A stretch of 30,934 nt of DNA, taken from Chlamydiota bacterium (lineage in GTDB: Bacteria > Chlamydiota > Chlamydiia > Chlamydiales > SM23-39). The notes beneath the pieces were generated by a model, which worked only from the letters and a program-made list of their open reading frames with translations, made no database searches and was not told the DNA's origin. The position numbers were made by a program, and so were the translations under genes. The stretch lies in NCBI GenBank assembly GCA_050049995.1, contig JASFVE010000014.1, forward strand, positions 1-30,934, written 5' to 3'. Each line of letters begins with the position of its first letter. Within the stretch, counting starts at the first letter, position 1. Shown here piece by piece: positions 6,896 to 29,446 of the stretch.

Positions 6896-8259
6896 GCAAG
6901 GTTAAGTCATTTTGGCAATGTTCTGAATGTGGCCACCAACAATCTAGGTGGACTGGAAGCTGCAGTCTGTGTCATCAGTGGAATACATTTTCTGAAATGC
7001 AATCAGTGGAAGAGTCAAAACCCAAGTTTGTTTCTCAAAAACCTTCTTCAAAACCTCTTAGAATATCAGAAATAAATATCTCCAGTTTTTCCAGAAAATC
7101 TACCAAAATGAAAGAAGTAGACAGACTATTTGGAGGAGGGATTGTCGGTGGGTCATTAATTTTATTAGGAGGCGATCCTGGCATTGGAAAGTCAACCCTT
7201 CTTTTACAGTTAGCGCATTTTCTAGCTGAACAAAATGAAAGGGTGTTATATGTCTGTGCAGAAGAGTCTATCGAACAAACTTCTTTAAGAGCCAACAGGT
7301 TAAATCTTGGGCAGGACAACTTATATTTATTTAACGAAACCTCTTTTACTCATATTAAGCAAGAAATAGATAAAATTAAGCCAACAGTTTTAATTGTTGA
7401 CTCTGTTCAGGTTGTTTATAAAACTGAGCTTCCTTCTTCTCCCGGATCTGTTGTTCAAGTTAGAGAGATTGCTAGTGAGTGCATGCATATTGCTAAGGGA
7501 TATGGTATTACCACATTTTTAATTGGCCATGTAACTAAGTCAGGAGAAATAGCAGGGCCAAGAGTTTTAGAACACTTAGTTGATACTGTTTTAGAGTTTG
7601 AAGGGGACCGACATCATGGATATAGGCTTTTAAGAAGTGTCAAAAACCGATTTGGCCCAACGGATGACATTGCTATTTTTCAAATGCATGAAAAAGGGCT
7701 AAAAGAAATTAGCAACCCTTCTGAGATTTTCTTAGAGCATAGGAAAGAAAATGTGTCAGGGTGTGTTGCAACGGCAACAGTCGAAGGTCTTCGACCTTTT
7801 TTAATTGAAGTGCAGGCTTTAGTCACGACAAGCGCTTATTCTACTGCTACAAGAAAAACAACAGGGCTTGATCAAAATAGACTGGCTCTTTTAATTGCCG
7901 TATTAGAAAAAAGAGTTGGCTATCTATTGCATCAATGCGATGTGTTTGTATCAGTTGCGGGTGGAATGAAAATTAAAGAGCCGTCCATTGATCTTGCCGT
8001 TCTTTTAGCTATTGCTTCTTCTTTTACGAATCGGTCAATTGATACGAACACTATTGTCATAGGAGAAGTAGGTCTTGCTGGTGAGGTAAGGGCAATCCCA
8101 AGAATAGAGAGCCGAATTAAAGAAGCAGTACATATGGGTTTTAAAAAATGTATTCTTCCTAAAAAGAATCAAAAAGAGCTCGATAAAGCCTTAGCAAGTA
8201 AAATTGAACTTGTTCCTGTCGATTTAGTCGATGAAGCAATTCAAGAGATTTTACCGTGA
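6892..8259 (+). CDS. radA: DNA repair protein RadA/Sms
   Basis: N-terminal C4 zinc finger (CSECG...CSLC), Walker A GDPGIGKST, KNRFG motif, Lon-like C-terminal domain. Confidence 0.97.
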   Translation: MSKVKSFWQCSECGHQQSRWTGSCSLCHQWNTFSEMQSVEESKPKFVSQKPSSKPLRISEINISSFSRKSTKMKEVDRLFGGGIVGGSLILLGGDPGIGKSTLLLQLAHFLAEQNERVLYVCAEESIEQTSLRANRLNLGQDNLYLFNETSFTHIKQEIDKIKPTVLIVDSVQVVYKTELPSSPGSVVQVREIASECMHIAKGYGITTFLIGHVTKSGEIAGPRVLEHLVDTVLEFEGDRHHGYRLLRSVKNRFGPTDDIAIFQMHEKGLKEISNPSEIFLEHRKENVSGCVATATVEGLRPFLIEVQALVTTSAYSTATRKTTGLDQNRLALLIAVLEKRVGYLLHQCDVFVSVAGGMKIKEPSIDLAVLLAIASSFTNRSIDTNTIVIGEVGLAGEVRAIPRIESRIKEAVHMGFKKCILPKKNQKELDKALASKIELVPVDLVDEAIQEILP

Positions 8260-8900
8260 AAATTACCATTGCAGCAAGAGACTCCAATTTATCAAAAGCT
8301 CAAGTAAAGGAAATTGTAAATAAGCTTAAGAAGGTCAATTCTACGATTTCTTTTGAGTTTCTTTTTCTTAAAAGTTCAGGAGATCTTGATTTAAAAACTT
8401 CTCTGAGAGTCTTAGGAAAAACAGATTTTTTTACTAAGGAAGTCGATCAGGCGCTTTTTTCTAGAAGAGCAAGGATAGTCGTTCACTCAGCAAAAGATTT
8501 ACCTGAAAAAATCCCTTCAGGTTTAACAATTGTTGCCATGACGGATAGTATTGATAAAAGAGACAGTTTAGTTGTAAGACCAGGGGAGTCTTTTTTATCT
8601 TTAAAGCCTGGAGCTATTATAGCCACCTCTTCAGTAAGAAGAGAGGAGATGGTAAAAAGATATAGAAAGGATTTGTCTTTTGTTGATTTGAGAGGAACCA
8701 TAGAAAAAAGACTTTCTTTATTGTCAGAAAATAAAGCAGATGGAGTGGTAGTCGCCGAAGCTGCTTTAATAAGGCTGAAAAAAACAGATTTGAATAGATT
8801 TATCTTTAATGATTCCACTGTTGAAGGACAAGGGCAGCTTGCTATTTTGGCACGCTCAGATGATCAGGAAATGGTAAAGCTTTTTGAAAAAATCCACTAA
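8256..8900 (+). CDS. hemC: Hydroxymethylbilane synthase (porphobilinogen deaminase), short form without domain 3
   Basis: R.S.L..AQ, GD, FTKE, VHSAKDLP, TSS.RR, LRG....RL, GQG.LA motifs; only 214 aa. Confidence 0.9.
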   Translation: MKITIAARDSNLSKAQVKEIVNKLKKVNSTISFEFLFLKSSGDLDLKTSLRVLGKTDFFTKEVDQALFSRRARIVVHSAKDLPEKIPSGLTIVAMTDSIDKRDSLVVRPGESFLSLKPGAIIATSSVRREEMVKRYRKDLSFVDLRGTIEKRLSLLSENKADGVVVAEAALIRLKKTDLNRFIFNDSTVEGQGQLAILARSDDQEMVKLFEKIH

Positions 8901-9540
8901 AAGAATTCTATATTTTGGACTTTCTATAGAGAACTTTAGCGATAAAAACTCAGCGGTGCATTATCCTTTGATAAAAATTGTGCCTCGTAAAAATATAAAG
9001 CGTAGTTTATTGGAAGTAGAGAAATTCTCTCATATTATTTTTACTTCACAGACTACCGTTGATATTTTTTTCTCCCATATTTCAAAAATACAACATCCTC
9101 AATGTATATCTATTGGTCCTCATACAAAAAAAGCTCTTTTAAAAAAGGGAATCTTTAGTGAGTGTCCTCAAGGGTATACGCAAGAAGGGATCATTCAATA
9201 CTTAAAAACTTGTTCTTTAAAAAATAGCTATATATTTCTTCCTCGCTCCTCATTGGCAAGAAAAAAAATAGACAGGTTTTTATCTGAAAACAACGTCAAA
9301 TTTGCGACTCTCGCATTGTATGACACAAAGTTTTACAAACCTAATGGGAAAATAAACTTTCAAGATTTTGAAGAATTTGTTTTCACAAGTCCTTCAACGG
9401 TAGATTCTTTTTTTCACTTTTTTCAGGAAATCCCACCACATATTAAGGTTAGGCATATTGGCCCTATTACTAAAGCTGCATATGAGAGCAGGCTTGAGAA
9501 AAACCGAGTTGAGGTCTATGATGACCTCAAAACTAACTAG
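8884..9540 (+). CDS. hemD: Uroporphyrinogen-III synthase
   Basis: HYPLI, IIFTS, IGP.T, LYDT, FTSPSTV, IGPIT motifs; directly follows hemC. The TTG start is uncertain. Confidence 0.85.
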
Positions 9541-21226: not shown

Positions 21227-21377
21227 CTTTAAATCTTCTTTTTTTTTGCTCTTCATAAGCATCTCAAAATTAACTACTTAATTAAAAAAATTTATTTACA
21301 TACTTAAGTGTTTGGATTAAATATTCATTATTAATTATTGTGTGCTGCCAACATTAACTGTAATAAAGGATGTAGGA

Positions 21378-22661
21378 ATGTCGAAAGTAACCTTTGAGAA
21401 CACTTTTAATGGTGCAGTAAGTGAGTTAGAAAAGAATAAAATTAGAGAGCTTGAGAGTAAAATCAATAGTCTTGGCTTTGATGTAATCTCACTTGGCAAT
21501 AAATTTGATAATATTATGCCTTTGCGAATGGCGGCAAGTATAGGAAATGATGTAGAGCATTATATTGAGAGATTAAAAGATATTTGTGCTACGGCTGATA
21601 AGGCTCATAGGCTAGCTCGTGGCATGAAGGGGATTTATAGTGTAGCATTAGTATTTCAAGGATTAAAATTAGCAGGGACTGCAGCTCTTGGAGTGGCTAA
21701 TCTTATCATTTTTGCTCCTCTTAAAGGAGATCCCAGCAAACTTATCCCCGAAAATGTTCATCAGAAAGCTAGAAGAGCGTCTGTGGTATTGGCTAAAATT
21801 TCTTCTATGAAAGATGAAAACAAAAAAGTGATAGCTACCCTTAAAGCGGAGCTTCAACAGAAAGAAGCAAGTTTAAAAGCTAATGTGCAACAAGAAAAAG
21901 CTTCACTTGAAGCTGAAGCTAAACAAAAAGAAGCCATACTTAAGGCGGAGCTTCAACAGAAAGAAGCAAGTTTAAAAACTCAAGTGCAACAAAAAAAAGC
22001 TTTATTAAAAACAACGCAAAAGCACATAGAGCAACTGGAGGTTTTATACAAATGCGAAAAAATTTATCCCTCGAAGGGTCTCCTAAATAAGCTAAACATT
22101 TACAGGCAAGCCATTAGCACCCTCCATAATGAGATAGAAAGTTCAATAAGTAAAATAAAACAAAAGAATGAAGAGTTTTTAATAAAGGTGAATGCCCGAA
22201 AAAAAATTCTTGAAGCGCAACTGCAAGATCTTGATGAGCAGCTTGCAAGTCAACTTAATGCCCTTAAAGAAAATTTAAAATCTGAGCTTAATAAACATAA
22301 AGAAGAAATACAAAATTTAAAAGATCAGTTGCCTCATAATTACCGCTTAAATTGTTTTGGGTCTTCAGTTAGATCGACTTTACAAGGGATAAATCTTAAA
22401 GATGGAATGGCGTATTCTATAAGTCAGGTTAAAAATATATATAAGAATGGAATTCAGCCATTCAATGCTAAATTATTAATTCCGAATATCGGTTCAAACA
22501 GAGAACCATCTTTACTAGCTACTGCTAAAAAAACTGCATTAACTATTATCGGTTTTAATAATAGTGGAGCACCTCATGTTCCAATTGCAGATCGAAAAAA
22601 TAGACAGAAACTAAGAATGTTGCTGAGGAATTATAAGCAACAGGTCTATCAATCACCCTAA
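21378..22661 (+). CDS. Hypothetical coiled-coil protein, paralog A
   Basis: ATG 21378 follows AAGGA/AGGA and aligns with the start of paralog B; conserved N- and C-terminal blocks flank a central coiled coil. Confidence 0.85.
   Translation: MSKVTFENTFNGAVSELEKNKIRELESKINSLGFDVISLGNKFDNIMPLRMAASIGNDVEHYIERLKDICATADKAHRLARGMKGIYSVALVFQGLKLAGTAALGVANLIIFAPLKGDPSKLIPENVHQKARRASVVLAKISSMKDENKKVIATLKAELQQKEASLKANVQQEKASLEAEAKQKEAILKAELQQKEASLKTQVQQKKALLKTTQKHIEQLEVLYKCEKIYPSKGLLNKLNIYRQAISTLHNEIESSISKIKQKNEEFLIKVNARKKILEAQLQDLDEQLASQLNALKENLKSELNKHKEEIQNLKDQLPHNYRLNCFGSSVRSTLQGINLKDGMAYSISQVKNIYKNGIQPFNAKLLIPNIGSNREPSLLATAKKTALTIIGFNNSGAPHVPIADRKNRQKLRMLLRNYKQQVYQSP
21840..22004 (+). repeat. Five degenerate 33-nt (11-aa) tandem repeats inside paralog A
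   Basis: LKAELQQKEAS/LKANVQQEKAS/LEAEAKQKEAI/LKAELQQKEAS/LKTQVQQKKAL. The 33-mer gcggagcttcaacagaaagaagcaagtttaaaa occurs identically at 21846 and 21945. Confidence 0.9.
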
Positions 22662-22864: not shown

Positions 22865-24121
22865 ATGTCTATTTCACATTTAACATTTGAGAGGAATTTT
22901 AATGGCGCAGCTGTAGATCCTCAACAATTAAGAAAAATTAATAAACTTGAAGCAAAAATTAATGGTCTAGGCTTTAAGTTGCAAAGCCAAGGGCGCGAGG
23001 TTAGCGGGATATTGCCTCTAAGAAATCTTGCTGAACACGGAGATCGCGTAACAGACTATATTGAGAAGTTAGAGTGCGTTTGCGCATTAATTAATAAAGC
23101 TAGGCGACTAACTTTTGGAGCTCGTGGAATTTATGGATCAGCATTGATATTTCAAGGAATAAAGTTTGCTGGAAATATTAGTTTAGGAGTTGTTAATGCA
23201 GTAATTTTCGCTCCTTTGGGAGGAGATCCAGGTAGGCTTATTCCTCATGAGGTTCATGCTACAGCAAGAGCTGCGTCATTGATATTTGACGCAATTGCAT
23301 CCAAAAAAATTACATGTAAAGATCGAATACAAGCTATTGAGGAAACAAAAGGTATTTTGCGTACACAAGCAGAGCAGCAAAGAACTCATTTACATGCTGA
23401 AACAGAGAGGAGTAATGTTGGATTACAAGATGAAATAAGACAGTTAGAAGCTGAAATAGCAGAAAAAACAGCTGACGTACAATCGCTAGAAAGCACTTTA
23501 AGCCAAATGGGGCGTGCAGCAGAGCATAGCCTAGTTAGACCTCAAGAGGTTTTTTTCAATTCTCTTCAGAAAAAAAATGAGGATCTACAAAGAGAAATAG
23601 AGGATTTAACAAGCATACTTGAGCAGAAGAAAGAGGACCTACCAAGGAGGGTAGAAGCCCTTAGAAATGATCTTGAGATGCAATTGCAAGAGATCAATGA
23701 GCAGCTTACAAGGGAGCTTGATAAACTTGAAAATGATCGTAAAGTAATGGTTGAGCAGCTTAATTCAGATATTACAAAGTTAAGAGCTACCTTACCTAGT
23801 AAACATCGTCTTTACCGTTTTGGATCATCTTTTAGATTCACTTTACAGAGTACGAGCCTAATAGGGGGAAGGAAATATTCTTGGAAGAAGGTTAAAGATT
23901 TATGGAAAGGGGCCTCTGAAGTTGATGTTGAATTTGTGATTAATAGAATATGTTCAAAAAGAGGGTTTGAGCTGAAAAAAACCGCAAAAAAAACTGCATT
24001 AACCCTTTTGGGTGTTAATGTGAATGGGACACCACATGTGCCACTTTCAGATCTAGTTATTTCAGGTAGGTTTACTAGAATTGAAAGTCAATATAAATAC
24101 GAATTATCTCGGAAAGATTAA
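22865..24121 (+). CDS. Hypothetical coiled-coil protein, paralog B
   Basis: AAGGAG RBS; shares TFE..FNGA, GIY..AL.FQG.K.AG...LGV.N..IFAPL.GDP..LIP, RL..FGSS.R.TLQ and TAKKTALT..G.N..G.PHVP..D with paralog A. Confidence 0.87.
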   Translation: MSISHLTFERNFNGAAVDPQQLRKINKLEAKINGLGFKLQSQGREVSGILPLRNLAEHGDRVTDYIEKLECVCALINKARRLTFGARGIYGSALIFQGIKFAGNISLGVVNAVIFAPLGGDPGRLIPHEVHATARAASLIFDAIASKKITCKDRIQAIEETKGILRTQAEQQRTHLHAETERSNVGLQDEIRQLEAEIAEKTADVQSLESTLSQMGRAAEHSLVRPQEVFFNSLQKKNEDLQREIEDLTSILEQKKEDLPRRVEALRNDLEMQLQEINEQLTRELDKLENDRKVMVEQLNSDITKLRATLPSKHRLYRFGSSFRFTLQSTSLIGGRKYSWKKVKDLWKGASEVDVEFVINRICSKRGFELKKTAKKTALTLLGVNVNGTPHVPLSDLVISGRFTRIESQYKYELSRKD

Positions 24122-24151: not shown

Positions 24152-25594
24152 TTAGCTTTCAGAATTAATGATTTCTTTAAGAGGCTCTTTTAAAGAGCTA
24201 TAACTTTTTAACTTATTTGTAAATCGGTTATAGCCTGCTAGGATTCCTAGCAGGCCAAAGAACATAATTTTCCCTTGTTGGAAAAATAAAAAAAAGTAGT
24301 CACATAAACCAATAAATAAAAACCCTACCATAAAAGAAATTAAGAGCAATTTTTCCAATGTAATGCTTTTAAGGCTCTCTTTAAAAATAAAAAATAAAAA
24401 TAATAAAAAAGAGCAAAGGCTCATTATTCCAGTTTCAGCTCCAAGTAAAAGATAAATATTATGAACTGTTGCTCCACTTAGACTAGAATCATAGGCAATG
24501 GTGCCTAAATAAGCATTCGAGTTAGGAATAAACTGATCATAACCCACCCCAAGAATAGGGTGGCTTTTCATCATGTTTAGAGCTATCAGACTGTAATATA
24601 TTCGGGCATTGTTGGAACCATTCGATAATTCACTATTACTAACAATTCCACCACGATTGTTCACTTGTGGATAAAAAATATACCCATTAAACAAAAAGGA
24701 AGCTCCAATCAATAGCATTATCAGAAAAATTGTTTTTTTTAGTTTTATCTTTGCAAAAGTTAGAAAAAAGATAGAGCTAATAAAAAAACCAAAAATAGCA
24801 CTTCTTGAAAAAGTGACAATAAGGCATGTGGATTGCAAAAAAAACATGAGAATAAAAAACCCCTTTTCCCATCTTTTCTTCTCAAGTACTGCATATAAGG
24901 TACTAAGCATGGAAATGCTTAAAAAAGCACCTAAAATATTGGGGTGAGGGAATGTTCCATGTGCTCGAAAGATAGAGGTTTTAGCTGTTTTAAAAAGGTT
25001 AAATATCCATACCTTTCCACCTGTCGGGATCATAGCATAATTTATATTCGATTTAAATTTAGGCTCTCCCAGTTTGTAAAGACCTAAGGGATGCTGTAAC
25101 AGATAATGATAGAGGCCAATAAAGCTTTCTACCGTTCCTATTAAGGCCAAAAGAAAAAATATTTTTCTTAAGAAGTTAGAAGGATCATTTTTTGCGATGA
25201 CGCTTGCTGTGAAAATAAATAGCAATACAGAGAAAAAAAGTTGATGGATCTTTAGAAGTGAGTGGCTTAAATTTGCTGTTTTAGAAAAAAGAACTGAGAA
25301 CAAGCTAAAAATAAAAACAATCCAAAGGTATTTATTTTCATTTTGAAAAATTAAACTTGTTTTTTTCTTAGCTGTAATTAAAAAACTAATAAAGCAAATA
25401 AAAATAATAATATCAGTTAAATAAATGTTAAGATCTTTACTTAATTGATAAGCCGGGGAATGAAAAAATATTTTAGAAATTACATGGTATAGTCTGTGTT
25501 CAAAAGGCTTATATTCAAAAGCAAAGTATCCAATAATAAAAAGAATAGATAATTCTAAAAATGAAAGCCGAAAAATTTTTAAGGTTTTTTGCAT
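24152..25594 (-). CDS. O-antigen ligase/Wzy_C family polytopic membrane protein
   Basis: Many TM segments; RA.GTF.HPN..G, TFSRSA, R.......M...HP.LGVG and HNIYL....ETG motifs. Confidence 0.85.
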   Translation of the reverse strand: MQKTLKIFRLSFLELSILFIIGYFAFEYKPFEHRLYHVISKIFFHSPAYQLSKDLNIYLTDIIIFICFISFLITAKKKTSLIFQNENKYLWIVFIFSLFSVLFSKTANLSHSLLKIHQLFFSVLLFIFTASVIAKNDPSNFLRKIFFLLALIGTVESFIGLYHYLLQHPLGLYKLGEPKFKSNINYAMIPTGGKVWIFNLFKTAKTSIFRAHGTFPHPNILGAFLSISMLSTLYAVLEKKRWEKGFFILMFFLQSTCLIVTFSRSAIFGFFISSIFFLTFAKIKLKKTIFLIMLLIGASFLFNGYIFYPQVNNRGGIVSNSELSNGSNNARIYYSLIALNMMKSHPILGVGYDQFIPNSNAYLGTIAYDSSLSGATVHNIYLLLGAETGIMSLCSFLLFLFFIFKESLKSITLEKLLLISFMVGFLFIGLCDYFFLFFQQGKIMFFGLLGILAGYNRFTNKLKSYSSLKEPLKEIINSES

Positions 25595-25649
25595 TTAAAC
25601 TAAGGTTTTAGGAAAACATTTTTTTATAATCTTATTATAAGAGGCGCCT

Positions 25650-26039
25650 TTATATGGCTTGTTTTCGAATTAAGGTAAATGTTTTATCTAAAATTCCTTT
25701 AAGTTCATCCAGTAAGTCTTGTAAGTTTTTAGAGTATTCTATTTTTGAAGTAGTATCATCCATTTTAGGTCCAGCAGCATAGGTTGTAATAAGCTTTAAG
25801 GATTGGGTTTCAAAACTATGCAATAGTCCTTTCAGTTGTTCAAAAAAAACACAACCTAGTGTATTGATTTTTTCGGAAAGATTAGCTAAATCAACTTGCA
25901 AGTTTGTTAAGTTTAACTCTAGCTGTTTAGGATTTCGAATAAATTCATGAATAGATTTATTAACTTCAACATCTAACTTTTTAAAAAAAGTTTCTAAGGT
26001 ATTTTCTAACTGATTATAAAGTATTTTAGCGTCTGACAT
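25650..26039 (-). CDS. Hypothetical helical protein
   Basis: 129-aa ORF with AAGGA RBS just upstream; no family recognised. Confidence 0.7.
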   Translation of the reverse strand: MSDAKILYNQLENTLETFFKKLDVEVNKSIHEFIRNPKQLELNLTNLQVDLANLSEKINTLGCVFFEQLKGLLHSFETQSLKLITTYAAGPKMDDTTSKIEYSKNLQDLLDELKGILDKTFTLIRKQAI

Positions 26040-26128
26040 AGCTTCCTTAAGTTCAAATTCTTTTTGACATATTTTTTTCTTTCTTTCAATTATAAAGATG
26101 AGTATTTGTGAAAAAAAGGAGGGAAGTT

Positions 26129-26266
26129 ATGAATTCATTAGTTGCACCTATTGTGACAATAATTGCTGGAATAGCAATTCTGATTTTTCCAAGGTTGCTA
26201 AGCTACATTGTTGCTTTTTATCTAATTTTAGTGGGTATTTTAGAGCTTGTAATTCGCATGAACTAA
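26129..26266 (+). CDS. 45-aa two-helix membrane protein, DUF3096-like (not in ORF track)
   Basis: AAGGAGG RBS, then MNSLVAPIVTIIAGIAILIFPRLLSYIVAFYLILVGILELVIRMN*. AGI.IL..PRLL.YIVA.YLI..G matches DUF3096 as I recall it. Confidence 0.85.
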   Translation: MNSLVAPIVTIIAGIAILIFPRLLSYIVAFYLILVGILELVIRMN

Positions 26267-27861
26267 TGTTCTTTTCGGGTTTCTTCGGTACTTTTTATTT
26301 GTTCTTTTAACTTGGGAAAGTTGGCAATAAGAGCGCCGAAGTCACTTTTTCTAATAGCTAAAATATCAGAAGGATCGACACACTTTACCGTGGCATTTCT
26401 TCTTTTTTCATTCAAAAGTGACATTTCTCCAAAAAACTCACCTTCACCTAGATTGGCAACATGAACATCCTCGCCTTGCTTTTTCTTTAAGATTTCTACT
26501 TTACCTTTTACTATTATATAGAGGTAGTCGCCAATATCTCCTTCATGGAAGATAATGTCTCCAGGTTCAAAGTGAAGAGAGTTAATTCCTTGAGAAGGAG
26601 AAAGCTTCAATTGCACAGCTTCAATAGGAATAATCATATCTAAAAACCAAGAAATAGCTACTTTCAACTTTCTATCAAATCCAGGGAGTTTCATCCAATA
26701 AATCAGCCGCCACATAAACCAGGCTACAAAACCTGAGATCTTAATGAACCCAAATAATTCGGCCACGGCGCTGTGATGGCCAAGCGCTCCCAGCATCCCT
26801 AAGCTTTTGAATTTAAATTCGGTTTTACTTCTTCCATTTATGACGTTGACAATATTTCGAGCTAGTACTTTTGCCTCCCTAATAGCAAATTGGGCAGTAG
26901 GTGGACATGTTGATCCTGTTTGAAGGTCAGGTATTTGAGCACAGTCGCCAATAGCCCAAATGCAATCTTCTCCTTGTACTTGCATAGTTGCATCGACTTT
27001 AATTTTCCCCTTTTCTTGAGGTAATTTTAGGTGTTCCAATAAAGGATTGGGAGAAGAGGGGACTGTTGAAATTACCGTTTTACTATTTAGTTTTGTTTCA
27101 TCATCGAGTATTGCTCCAGCAGGAGTTGCTGTAGCCAGCCTTTTACCAAATTGGATATCTACCCCTCTTTTTTGTAAAATTTTACCGGCATAATTACTCA
27201 GTGATTCACTAAGTTCCCTTTCCAGCACTCGTTCTTTACTATGAATCAAATAGACTTTGACTAGGCCTGGGTCAATTGTCGGATATTTTTTGGCTAAATT
27301 ACGAACTAAGTCATTAATCTCTGCTGCGATTTCTGTTCCAGAAAAACCGCCGCCTCCAATTACATATGTCAATAAAGCTTTTTTTAGCTCTTCGTCAGCT
27401 TCTGTGGAAGCAGCTTCTATGGTATCAATAATATGATTTCTAATTCTTAGAGCATCTGACAAATTTTTAAATGGCAAGGCATGCTCATGAAGACCAGGTG
27501 TTGCTCTAAAATCAGTTACATTGCCTAAGCCAACTACTAAATGGTCATAGTGTACAACTGAGGGCTTATGGGAAAATTGTGGGTATAAATTAATTGCCTT
27601 CTTTTCTAAGTCAATTGACTCAATATCCCTAATATATAGCGTTGTTTTAGGAAGTCGTCTTTGTAAAGAGCTCACAGTGTCTATAATTCCCACAGAGCCG
27701 CCGACTACTTCTGCTAGCATGGGCTGATAGACAAAATAATTTTCCCTATTGATTAATGCAATCTCGTAATCTTTGATTTTTCCAAGTTGTTTTTCTAAAT
27801 GCATAGCGGTATACACACCGCCAAAACCGCCACCTAAGATTACTATTCTTTTCTTACTCAT
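26263..27861 (-). CDS. Type II NAD(P)H:quinone oxidoreductase-like flavoprotein with a C-terminal cyclic-nucleotide-binding domain
   Basis: GGGFGG, QP.L.EV..G, GGGFSGTE, WAIGDCA, PPTAQ.A.RE and the amphipathic GFVAWFMWR helix, followed by F..GD.IF.EGD.GD.LYII..G.V...GEFFGEMSLL...RNATV. Confidence 0.9.
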   Translation of the reverse strand: MSKKRIVILGGGFGGVYTAMHLEKQLGKIKDYEIALINRENYFVYQPMLAEVVGGSVGIIDTVSSLQRRLPKTTLYIRDIESIDLEKKAINLYPQFSHKPSVVHYDHLVVGLGNVTDFRATPGLHEHALPFKNLSDALRIRNHIIDTIEAASTEADEELKKALLTYVIGGGGFSGTEIAAEINDLVRNLAKKYPTIDPGLVKVYLIHSKERVLERELSESLSNYAGKILQKRGVDIQFGKRLATATPAGAILDDETKLNSKTVISTVPSSPNPLLEHLKLPQEKGKIKVDATMQVQGEDCIWAIGDCAQIPDLQTGSTCPPTAQFAIREAKVLARNIVNVINGRSKTEFKFKSLGMLGALGHHSAVAELFGFIKISGFVAWFMWRLIYWMKLPGFDRKLKVAISWFLDMIIPIEAVQLKLSPSQGINSLHFEPGDIIFHEGDIGDYLYIIVKGKVEILKKKQGEDVHVANLGEGEFFGEMSLLNEKRRNATVKCVDPSDILAIRKSDFGALIANFPKLKEQIKSTEETRKEH

Positions 27862-27957
27862 ATTTTTCTTTTAATTCACTTTACTTTTTTTTTCACATGA
27901 TAATTTGCGAAATAATTCATTTTTCATTTAAGGTGCAATTTAACGTGTGTTTGAAGG

Positions 27958-28548
27958 ATGTCTTTGCAAGATCAAATATTTAAAAAAATTAATAAGCAAT
28001 ATACACCTCTAAGTTTTTTTGCTAATCCAAAGGATGAGGCAGAGTTTTTTGAGTATTGGAAAAGATATTCCAAAAGAATGATTGAAGCCCAAGACCCTTC
28101 TTTAGTAAAAAAAGTTAGCCGACTTTTCAAAAGCATAGAAAGCAAAAAAAATGATGACGTTTTCGTCAAAGACTTAGAAGTTAAAAAAGTTAATGATCTA
28201 GTTGGATGGGGAGTCTTTGCCAAAAGAAAAATCCCTAAAAAAACCATCCTGACTCATTATGCCGGGATCATCAAAAAAGATCGTCAGGTAAGCAATAAAA
28301 ATCGTCATGTCTTTGGATTTTCTGGAACGGAAAAACTAAAAGATTGGGTAATTGATTCTGAGCGTGTTACTAATATGGGCTCTTTAATAAATCACTCCAA
28401 CAACGGGAATGTAGAGGCGATGGAATATTACGACAAAAAAGGGCCTAAAATTGTTTTCGAGACGATTCGTGATATTGAAAAAGGACAAGAGCTTACCTAT
28501 GATTATGGAGAGGGCTACTGGAAAGGGTTAAAAGAAAAACCACGATAG
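27958..28548 (+). CDS. SET-domain lysine methyltransferase
   Basis: GWGVFAKRKI, YAG, INHS and I..GQELTYDYG..YW motifs; no Cys-rich post-SET region. Confidence 0.9.
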   Translation: MSLQDQIFKKINKQYTPLSFFANPKDEAEFFEYWKRYSKRMIEAQDPSLVKKVSRLFKSIESKKNDDVFVKDLEVKKVNDLVGWGVFAKRKIPKKTILTHYAGIIKKDRQVSNKNRHVFGFSGTEKLKDWVIDSERVTNMGSLINHSNNGNVEAMEYYDKKGPKIVFETIRDIEKGQELTYDYGEGYWKGLKEKPR

Positions 28549-29086: not shown

Positions 29087-29446
29087 ATGAAATTTACTGA
29101 ATCACATGAATGGATTTCATTACAGGACAATATTGCAACTGTAGGGGTTACCGATTTTGCTCAAAATGAACTAGGTGAAATAGTTTATGTTGAACTCCCC
29201 AAAGTAGGCATGCAGGTAGAAGCAGGTGAAGAAGTATGTGTATTAGAGTCAACAAAAGCAGCTGCTGATGTATATAGTCCTGTCTCAGGTGAAATTATTG
29301 AGGTTAATCATTCACTGGATCAAGAAACAGAAAAAATTAACGAATCTTCTGAAAATGAGGGCTGGTTATTTAAAATAAAACTTACAAATCCTTTAGAGTA
29401 TAAAGGACTTTTAACATTAGAAGAATATCAAAACTTATTAGATTAA
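29087..29446 (+). CDS. gcvH: Glycine cleavage system H protein (lipoyl carrier)
   Basis: F...HEW, VGVTDFAQ..LG.IVYVELP, lipoyl-Lys in ESTKAA.D.YSPVSG, GWL.K. Start moved to ATG 29087. Confidence 0.96.
   Translation: MKFTESHEWISLQDNIATVGVTDFAQNELGEIVYVELPKVGMQVEAGEEVCVLESTKAAADVYSPVSGEIIEVNHSLDQETEKINESSENEGWLFKIKLTNPLEYKGLLTLEEYQNLLD

Follow-up and report, generated by a model that had tools for sequence, protein, structure and literature searches.

The window, a stretch of 30,934 nucleotides (nt) of contig JASFVE010000014.1 from a Chlamydiota bacterium (assembly GCA_050049995.1), carries a gene on its minus strand that joins a type II NAD(P)H dehydrogenase (NDH-2) to a C-terminal cyclic-nucleotide-binding (cNMP) domain. 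The fusion is real and not an assembly chimera. From its sequence and its genomic company, we read it with moderate confidence as a cyclic AMP (cAMP)-gated, non-pumping NAD(P)H:menaquinone reductase with a predicted preference for NADPH.

Pfam assigns Pyr_redox_2 to residues 5-329 of the protein (E 3.4e-37), NDH2_C to residues 355-407 and cNMP_binding to residues 430-514 (E 3.5e-25; 88 bits, cut-off 27.5). An earlier note, made from the DNA letters alone, had described an NDH-2 running in frame into a cNMP domain that begins near nt 26574, together with two Rossmann motifs, a GD motif, an AQxA motif and a phosphate-binding cassette. The single frame and the Pfam families of both parts bear this out, residue 430 does begin at nt 26574, and every one of these motifs is present. 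The features are listed below. Counts out of 120 refer to an alignment of 120 sequences, query included, and structural remarks refer to an AlphaFold model built from 150 input sequences (predicted local distance difference test score, pLDDT, 89.5; predicted template-modeling score 0.84); a model from 27 sequences (pLDDT 75) was discarded.

26263..27861, minus strand: NDH-2-cNMP fusion gene (P0001), 532 residues, single unbroken open reading frame, stop codon counted in.
26632..27861, minus strand: NDH-2 catalytic core and membrane-anchor region, residues 1-410 (Pfam PF07992 and PF22366; model compared with 5na1).
27817..27834, minus strand: Rossmann motif GGGFGG for flavin adenine dinucleotide (FAD), residues 10-15 (G10, G12, F13 and G15 in 120/120).
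27337..27354, minus strand: NAD(P)H-binding Rossmann motif GGGFSG, residues 170-175 (G170, G171, G172, S174 and G175 in 120/120).
27229..27243, minus strand: H207-S-K-E-R211, nicotinamide-cofactor specificity site by alignment to 4nwz (H207 in 120/120, R211 in 114/120).
26944..26949, minus strand: GD motif, residues 305-306 (120/120 aligned sequences).
26884..26895, minus strand: AQFA (AQxA) motif, residues 323-326, opposite AQIA of 4nwz (A323 and Q324 in 120/120, A326 in 119/120).
26632..26730, minus strand: two membrane-anchor helices in the predicted model, residues 378-391 and 395-410 (hydrophobic moments 0.23 and 0.45).
26587..26631, minus strand: conserved 15-residue linker from anchor helix to sensor, residues 411-425 (coil in the model, pLDDT about 70).
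26266..26586, minus strand: cyclic-nucleotide-binding domain, residues 426-532 (PF00027, E 3.5e-25; matches PKG, PKA, SthK, MloK1 and CRP-type structures).
26392..26433, minus strand: phosphate-binding cassette F477-G-E...R488-N-A490 (F477, G478, E479, R488 and A490 in 120/120).
26275..26277, minus strand: C-helix R529 (120/120; proposed to be in register with MloK1 R348).

A chance joining of two genes by assembly or annotation is refuted as an explanation and carries a vanishingly small probability. Both domains are present in 119 of 119 homologs among the matches listed (60-81% identity), the best named of which belong to Simkaniaceae and other Chlamydiota. A contig from another study (X2 record 3, 26482-26704) bridges the domain junction with zero differences, and G+C content at third codon positions is alike in the two parts (0.29 and 0.28). 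An independent assembly (L021) encodes a protein 98% identical. The full-length fusion occurs in 60 of 300 scored Chlamydiota genomes, spread over 13 families, and lies in one open frame in all 60. The earlier note had named two checks that bear on this point, for a chimeric assembly and for the distribution of the architecture; homologs, second assembly and junction-spanning contig exclude a chimera, and the fusion is found in Thermoleophilia and other bacteria besides the Chlamydiota. Two records (L024:3-2195 and G293:C90:8977-11151, possibly one assembly) hold partial tandem copies of the C-terminal part just upstream of an intact copy.

The closest solved relative of the catalytic part is Caldalkalibacillus thermarum NDH-2 (4nwz; residues 1-388, E 2e-48), and the model superposes on Staphylococcus aureus NDH-2 (5na1) with Z 45.6 and a root-mean-square deviation of 2.1 Å over 390 aligned residues. 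Fold searches were dominated by this part, and the sensor was compared with known structures by sequence only. The second anchor helix is clearly amphipathic, and no transmembrane segment was found in the protein (highest 19-residue hydropathy 1.57). By sequence and predicted fold the protein is thus an NDH-2, with both Rossmann motifs, the GD motif (which we take to bind the FAD pyrophosphate), the AQxA motif (presumably the quinone site) and a C-terminal anchor that lacks a transmembrane helix.

Its cofactor site is unusual for the family. H207 aligns with E198 of the C. thermarum enzyme and is followed by basic residues, HSKxR in 87/120 and HSQxR in 19/120. According to Blaza et al. (PMC5220320), E198 clashes with the 2'-phosphate, most NDH-2 carry Glu or Asp at this site and use NADH as sole substrate, and a Glu-to-Gln change in Agrobacterium NDH-2 shifts the enzyme towards NADPH. 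With His at this position throughout the alignment, the protein falls outside the NADH-specific subgroup. Because His-Ser-Lys-x-Arg replaces the NADH-selecting Glu, NADPH use is predicted, and we consider a preference for NADPH somewhat favored.

The fusion is a second NDH-2, a paralog of a plain, Glu-type enzyme. The source genome (G000; 1.88 Mb, 98% complete) encodes an unfused NDH-2 of 423 residues on contig C41 with Glu at the specificity site, and six of seven plain chlamydial NDH-2 keep Glu or Asp there (16 loci fetched, 8 dropped by a coverage filter). A second NDH-2 match is present in 60/60 carriers, with the catalytic part only in the 20 cases listed. Elsewhere, L130 (G078:C67:3086-4387) encodes a 434-residue member of the wider NDH-2 group that has no sensor and has Ser at the specificity site.

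Partners for an NADPH-oxidizing menaquinone reductase can be found in the source genome. It holds glucose-6-phosphate dehydrogenase (G6PDH), cydA (cytochrome bd) and a menB/menA/menG-like cluster, so that an NADPH source, an oxidase and a quinone are present. MqnA and MqnD of the futalosine route were absent from a search of this genome, which has the classical men route instead. G6PDH was also tried as a discriminator of carriers and rejected, since 288 of the 300 genomes have it.

The sensor looks intact. The cassette stretch, residues 476-490, reads FFGEMSLLNEKRRNA; the cassette residues, the hinge F508 and R529 are all invariant in the alignment. Conservation among 110 close sequences peaks in the cassette, where mean pairwise identity is 0.72 (core, 0.65); the linker region, residues 413-428, is core-like at 0.62. 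Compared with L021, the sensor shows 25 synonymous and 2 non-synonymous codon differences over 112 codons, and on this sequence comparison it is under purifying selection.

Solved relatives of residues ~425-531 are the cNMP domains of PKG, PKA and channels. Residues 470-526 match MloK1 289-345 at equal length, which sets G478, E479 and R488 on MloK1 G297, E298 and R307. Presumably R307 and R348 of MloK1 hold and cap cAMP. Extending the equal-length match by three residues would place R529 on R348. Mutants of both arginines appear among the MloK1 structures in PMC10761061 (Table 1). The predicted model shows a full beta-barrel with B and C helices; together with the Gly-Glu...Arg-x-Ala cassette, these features identify the sensor, by sequence and model, as a cNMP domain. 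It is joined straight to the last membrane-anchor helix, and in the model the 15-residue linker runs to strand 1 in the place of helix A. A CRP/FNR-type transcription factor was considered and rejected, as the chain stops at residue 532, just three positions past R529, with no helix-turn-helix. A complex prediction of core (1-415), sensor (422-532), FAD and cAMP scored 0.00 and has no bearing either way.

The search for nucleotide cyclases suggested in the earlier note found three membrane class III cyclases in the source genome. The C16 cyclase has the full catalytic set (both metal-binding Asp, Lys, Thr, Asn, Arg). The C19 cyclase lacks the catalytic Arg and keeps both metal-binding Asp, and the C21 cyclase has Glu for the second Asp and keeps Asn and Arg. 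The Lys/Thr pair, which we take to mark ATP-using cyclases, is present in all three; the other catalytic-residue assignments are likewise our own. The C19 and C21 proteins (C19:23194-24669 and C21:22986-24434) are similar membrane cyclases with complementary losses, a pattern expected of an obligate heterodimer.

The genome has three cyclase genes, and apart from the fusion no intact sensor of cNMP type was found there. The only other cNMP domain is fused N-terminally to an aspartate ammonia-lyase (Lyase_1 and FumaraseC_C; G000:C53:10514-12406, minus strand, L115) and lacks the cassette Glu and Arg; it adds a further metabolic enzyme with a domain of this type to the genome. Across the 300 Chlamydiota genomes, a class III cyclase was detected in 59/60 carriers and in 111/240 non-carriers. 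As controls, 86/147 genomes with only unfused NDH-2 and 78/156 non-carriers with another cNMP domain have a cyclase. Within the family of the window's own genome, the counts are 5/5 carriers and 13/42 non-carriers. The fusion is the sole PF00027 match in 49/60 carriers, complete Simkaniaceae genomes among them.

These observations suggest that the sensor very probably binds a cyclic nucleotide. Given binding, sequence evidence makes cAMP the likely ligand, with good though lesser confidence. Because 59 of the 60 carriers encode a class III cyclase and the fusion is the sole cNMP domain in 49, the signal is likely the bacterium's own cAMP and not that of the host.

Several observations weigh against a cAMP-gated NADPH dehydrogenase. 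Kinship inflates the co-occurrence statistics, as 24/60 carriers come from one family, and one carrier (G219, 90% complete) has no detected cyclase. Among the cyclase-positive non-carriers, 33/111 have no detectable cNMP domain; conversely, a cNMP protein is present in 29/29 genomes of family f4, with no class III cyclase found in 30. Within this phylum, cyclase and cNMP protein thus need not go together. In the window and in most loci, the neighborhood of the fusion gene holds no cyclase. The linker is coil in the model, which shows no N-terminal helix A. In 40 distant members the cassette is weaker (Gly in 40, Glu in 38, R488 in 34/40, R529 in 17/40). On the dehydrogenase side, the replacement reported at the specificity site in PMC5220320 is Gln and the fusion has His; and the source genome encodes a transhydrogenase, another NADPH route, which makes a respiratory entry point for NADPH less necessary. 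The source genome also has no detectable homologs of the sugar-metabolism neighbors described below. As a separate observation, a stand-alone cNMP protein of about 140-170 residues occurs in many non-carrier chlamydiae, including family f4, and seems largely missing from fusion carriers.

Some of these points would fit a sensor that does not respond to cAMP and instead takes another ligand (cGMP, another cyclic nucleotide or a non-cyclic metabolite) or serves as a structural or oligomerization module. Family f4, which has cNMP proteins but no class III cyclase found, the lack of helix A in the model and the many distant members that add CBS pairs and have eroded cassettes all lean this way, as does position 489, which is Ser or Thr in 70/120 and otherwise variable. 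We presume that the counterpart of this position helps cGMP selection in PKG. On the other side, all ligand-contacting residues are invariant in the chlamydial branch, other chlamydial cNMP proteins co-occur with cyclases far less often than the fusion does, and the cyclases of the source genome carry ATP-type residues. The fourth residue past R529 is Leu or Ile in 75/120, as we take to be the case in cAMP-preferring channels, though the protein studied here stops before that position. Overall, we judge a sensor unresponsive to cAMP to be unlikely.

The earlier note had pointed to the Na+-pumping nqr genes nearby and had proposed that the enzyme could switch respiration with developmental stage or host cAMP/cGMP. 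In a version built on this, the sensor would read host cAMP/cGMP or a developmental cue and shift flux between NQR and the fusion. Chlamydiae are intracellular, and the nqr genes are indeed 1.6 kb off: nqrE ends at 29443, 1,582 nt upstream of the fusion start codon. Three opposite-strand genes intervene, however, and nqrD/E lie near the fusion gene in only 2/41 chlamydial loci with at least 3 kb of upstream sequence, both close relatives, so we rejected an nqr linkage and regard the adjacency as incidental. According to PMC3738481, Protochlamydia elementary bodies respire glucose mainly via the pentose phosphate pathway, which makes a stage-linked role conceivable. Against a host signal stand the carriers' own cyclases, three of them in the source genome with ATP-type residues, and the occurrence of the fusion in soil Thermoleophilia and other free-living groups; we consider this version improbable. 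What stands of the note's proposal is the cNMP-gated, non-pumping entry point itself, which the invariant cassette, the purifying selection and the cyclase co-occurrence support indirectly; the nqr link and the host signal are not supported.

A cAMP-regulated enzyme might also act chiefly outside respiration, by reducing a quinone for menaquinone synthesis, as NdbB and NDC1 do ahead of the methylation step, or in antioxidant quinol upkeep or as an NADPH overflow valve. The NADPH-type site agrees with this, NADH entry is already served by NQR and the plain NDH-2, one homolog (P0020) is automatically named 'Demethylphylloquinone reductase NdbB', and the men genes of the source genome follow the classical route and include MenA- and MenG/UbiE-like members. 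NdbB and NDC1 act before MenG, according to PMC13452876; the need for NdbB is, however, described there for the monofunctional cyanobacterial and plastid MenG, unlike E. coli MenG/UbiE. No men or ubi gene was found among the annotated recurrent neighbor clusters of the fusion (80 loci; 24 representatives scanned), and the men cluster of the source genome sits on a different contig from the fusion gene. A chiefly non-respiratory role therefore seems to us a minor possibility, a little less probable than a sensor unresponsive to cAMP.

For a cAMP-gated respiratory enzyme, we propose the following mechanism. Membrane sensor cyclases would produce cAMP in the bacterial cytoplasm. G478, E479 and R488 would bind it, R529 would cap it and the C-helix would swing. 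Since the sensor sits 15 residues from the last anchor helix, this motion would travel along the linker, reach the face that binds the membrane and admits quinone, and alter turnover. The open enzyme would then act as a non-pumping drain that feeds NADPH, probably a product of the pentose phosphate pathway, to menaquinone and cytochrome bd, leaving NADH to NQR and the plain NDH-2. That nucleotide binding changes enzyme activity is, in our estimate, highly probable. The effect is probably activation, by analogy with other cNMP-domain fusions and the calcium-activated EF-hand NDH-2, which are precedents for activation. By analogy with Protochlamydia, an NADPH valve of this kind is plausible, as a conceivable role and not a demonstration.

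Beyond the Chlamydiota, the best 80 GTDB loci comprise 55 chlamydial or unlabeled loci and 25 from Thermoleophilia (~48-51% identity). We scanned domains in 71 of the 150 best representatives at 50% identity, picked for length or full coverage. A cNMP domain was found in 51/71, with additional CBS domains in 18 of the 51, FHA in 4 and TPR in 2. Single representatives (P0122, P0124, P0155, P0202 and P0241) add to the NDH-2-cNMP core DoxX, an aquaporin-family (MIP) channel, AhpC/TSA, HlyD and ketopantoate reductase (ApbA); as single records they may include chimeras. In the ESM Atlas, clusters with the NDH-2-cNMP architecture come most often from Pseudomonadota, Verrucomicrobiota and Acidobacteriota, as judged from the members that have a record.

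A FastTree phylogeny of the catalytic core alone (132 subsampled rows, midpoint-rooted) places 80 of 81 sensor-labeled rows in one 95-row clade (support 98), distant from plain chlamydial NDH-2. This topology fits a single old fusion followed by later losses; the root is the midpoint, and we claim neither a donor nor an order of events.

Canonical bacterial NDH-2 (C. thermarum 4nwz, S. aureus 5na1, mycobacterial 9mqy and Bacillus subtilis YjlD) share with the fusion the fold, both Rossmann motifs, the GD and AQxA motifs and C-terminal anchor helices without a transmembrane span. They are about 30% identical to the fusion, which has His-Ser-Lys-x-Arg in place of Glu and a 122-residue tail with the cNMP domain. 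No solved structure matched both parts among the 60 chains listed. Plant and fungal NDH-2 with EF-hands (NDB1 type) are calcium-activated and NADPH-specific. Like the fusion, they combine an NDH-2 with its own second-messenger sensor and have a non-acidic residue at the specificity site; their EF-hand is inserted in the NAD(P)H domain, however, while the fusion is bacterial and carries a cNMP sensor after the membrane anchor.

CAP-family domains (MloK1, SthK, PKG, PKA, Epac, CRP, Bd1971 and mycobacterial Pat) share with the sensor the beta-barrel, the G-E...R-x-A cassette, the hinge Phe and a C-helix Arg, here proposed to be in register with MloK1 R348. The fusion differs in that its output is a respiratory flavoenzyme, with no helix A in the model and no DNA-binding helix-turn-helix. 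NdbB of cyanobacteria and NDC1 of plants are demethylphylloquinone reductases that belong, like the fusion, to the NDH-2 family, and the NdbB name has been transferred automatically to one homolog; no linkage of the fusion to men genes was seen among its annotated recurrent neighbors, and we know of no sensor domain reported in NdbB or NDC1. Other proteins with cNMP and Pyr_redox_2 domains in one chain (ESM Atlas ranks 19-24) reach scores of 0.87-0.88, below the 0.99 of the NDH-2 clusters, and have no NDH2_C listed; we take them to be thioredoxin-reductase-like fusions with an N-terminal cNMP domain. Because the two Pfam families are common to both groups, a plain domain-architecture query would mix them.

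The recurrent neighbors of the fusion gene at the 55 chlamydial or unlabeled loci are an aldose-epimerase-like gene (22; named without a Pfam match), an EamA gene (20) and a transaldolase-family gene (16). At least one of the epimerase-like and transaldolase-family genes is nearby in 26/55, and these carriers are related. At two of the 80 loci (L066 and L067, close kin that represent one event), the fusion stands beside a CHASE2 cyclase, a metallo-beta-lactamase-fold hydrolase and a cNMP-CAAX protease; L093 has a weak cyclase-ATPase near the fusion. The source genome encodes a protein of 445 residues (G000:C27; L133:4299-5633, minus strand) whose N-terminus is response-regulator-like and whose metallo-beta-lactamase-fold domain is 44% identical to the L066/L067 hydrolase; it is a candidate cAMP phosphodiesterase.

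In the window itself, a promoter and terminator scan of 25500-28200 gave 8 and 2 sites, no excess over shuffled sequences (7.8 and 1.7). A SET-domain gene (27958-28548, plus strand) is divergent from the fusion gene, 96 nt off, and lies near the fusion in only 3/80 loci. Tandem genes at 21342-22661 and 22865-24121 (plus strand) encode paralogous coiled-coil proteins of 439 and 418 residues, with no family match above cut-off; the first has an internal repeat. Haem-pathway-like genes at 130-2765 and 8256-9540 (plus strand) encode a HemN-type radical SAM protein, a flavin oxidoreductase that we take to be HemY-like, a short porphobilinogen deaminase of 214 residues and HemD.

The domain annotation of the fusion is already in databases, automatically assigned. 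Literature searches found no published description of an NDH-2-cNMP fusion, with most subscription papers outside their reach, and no paper on the cyclases of these chlamydial lineages; a term search of the main text of two chlamydial genomics papers (PMC9816063 and PMC8242063) returned no mention of the fusion or the cyclases. New here are the phylum-wide cyclase co-occurrence with controls, the count of carriers in which the fusion is the sole receptor, the finding that the paralogs differ by Glu or His at the specificity site, and the dismissal of a link to nqr.

To our knowledge, cAMP control of bacterial respiration acts via transcription factors or modifying enzymes. If the proposed gating is correct, the fusion would be a case of direct, post-translational cAMP control of respiratory electron entry, and a target for chlamydial cyclases that otherwise have no visible receptor. 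A single 60-kDa chain and a standard spectrophotometric assay make the claim quickly testable, and an NDH-2 that a ligand can switch would be of use as a redox tool. More tentatively, and with real doubt, we suggest that in one fifth of chlamydial lineages the one main target of cAMP may be no gene regulator at all, and may instead be an NADPH-burning NDH-2 switched on directly by the cyclases, which would send pentose-phosphate reducing power into respiration in seconds, possibly even in the transcriptionally quiet elementary body. The enzyme would then be the first respiratory dehydrogenase gated by a second-messenger nucleotide. It would also be the plainest form of a widespread bacterial family in which adenylate charge (through CBS) and phosphorylation (through FHA) are read as well.

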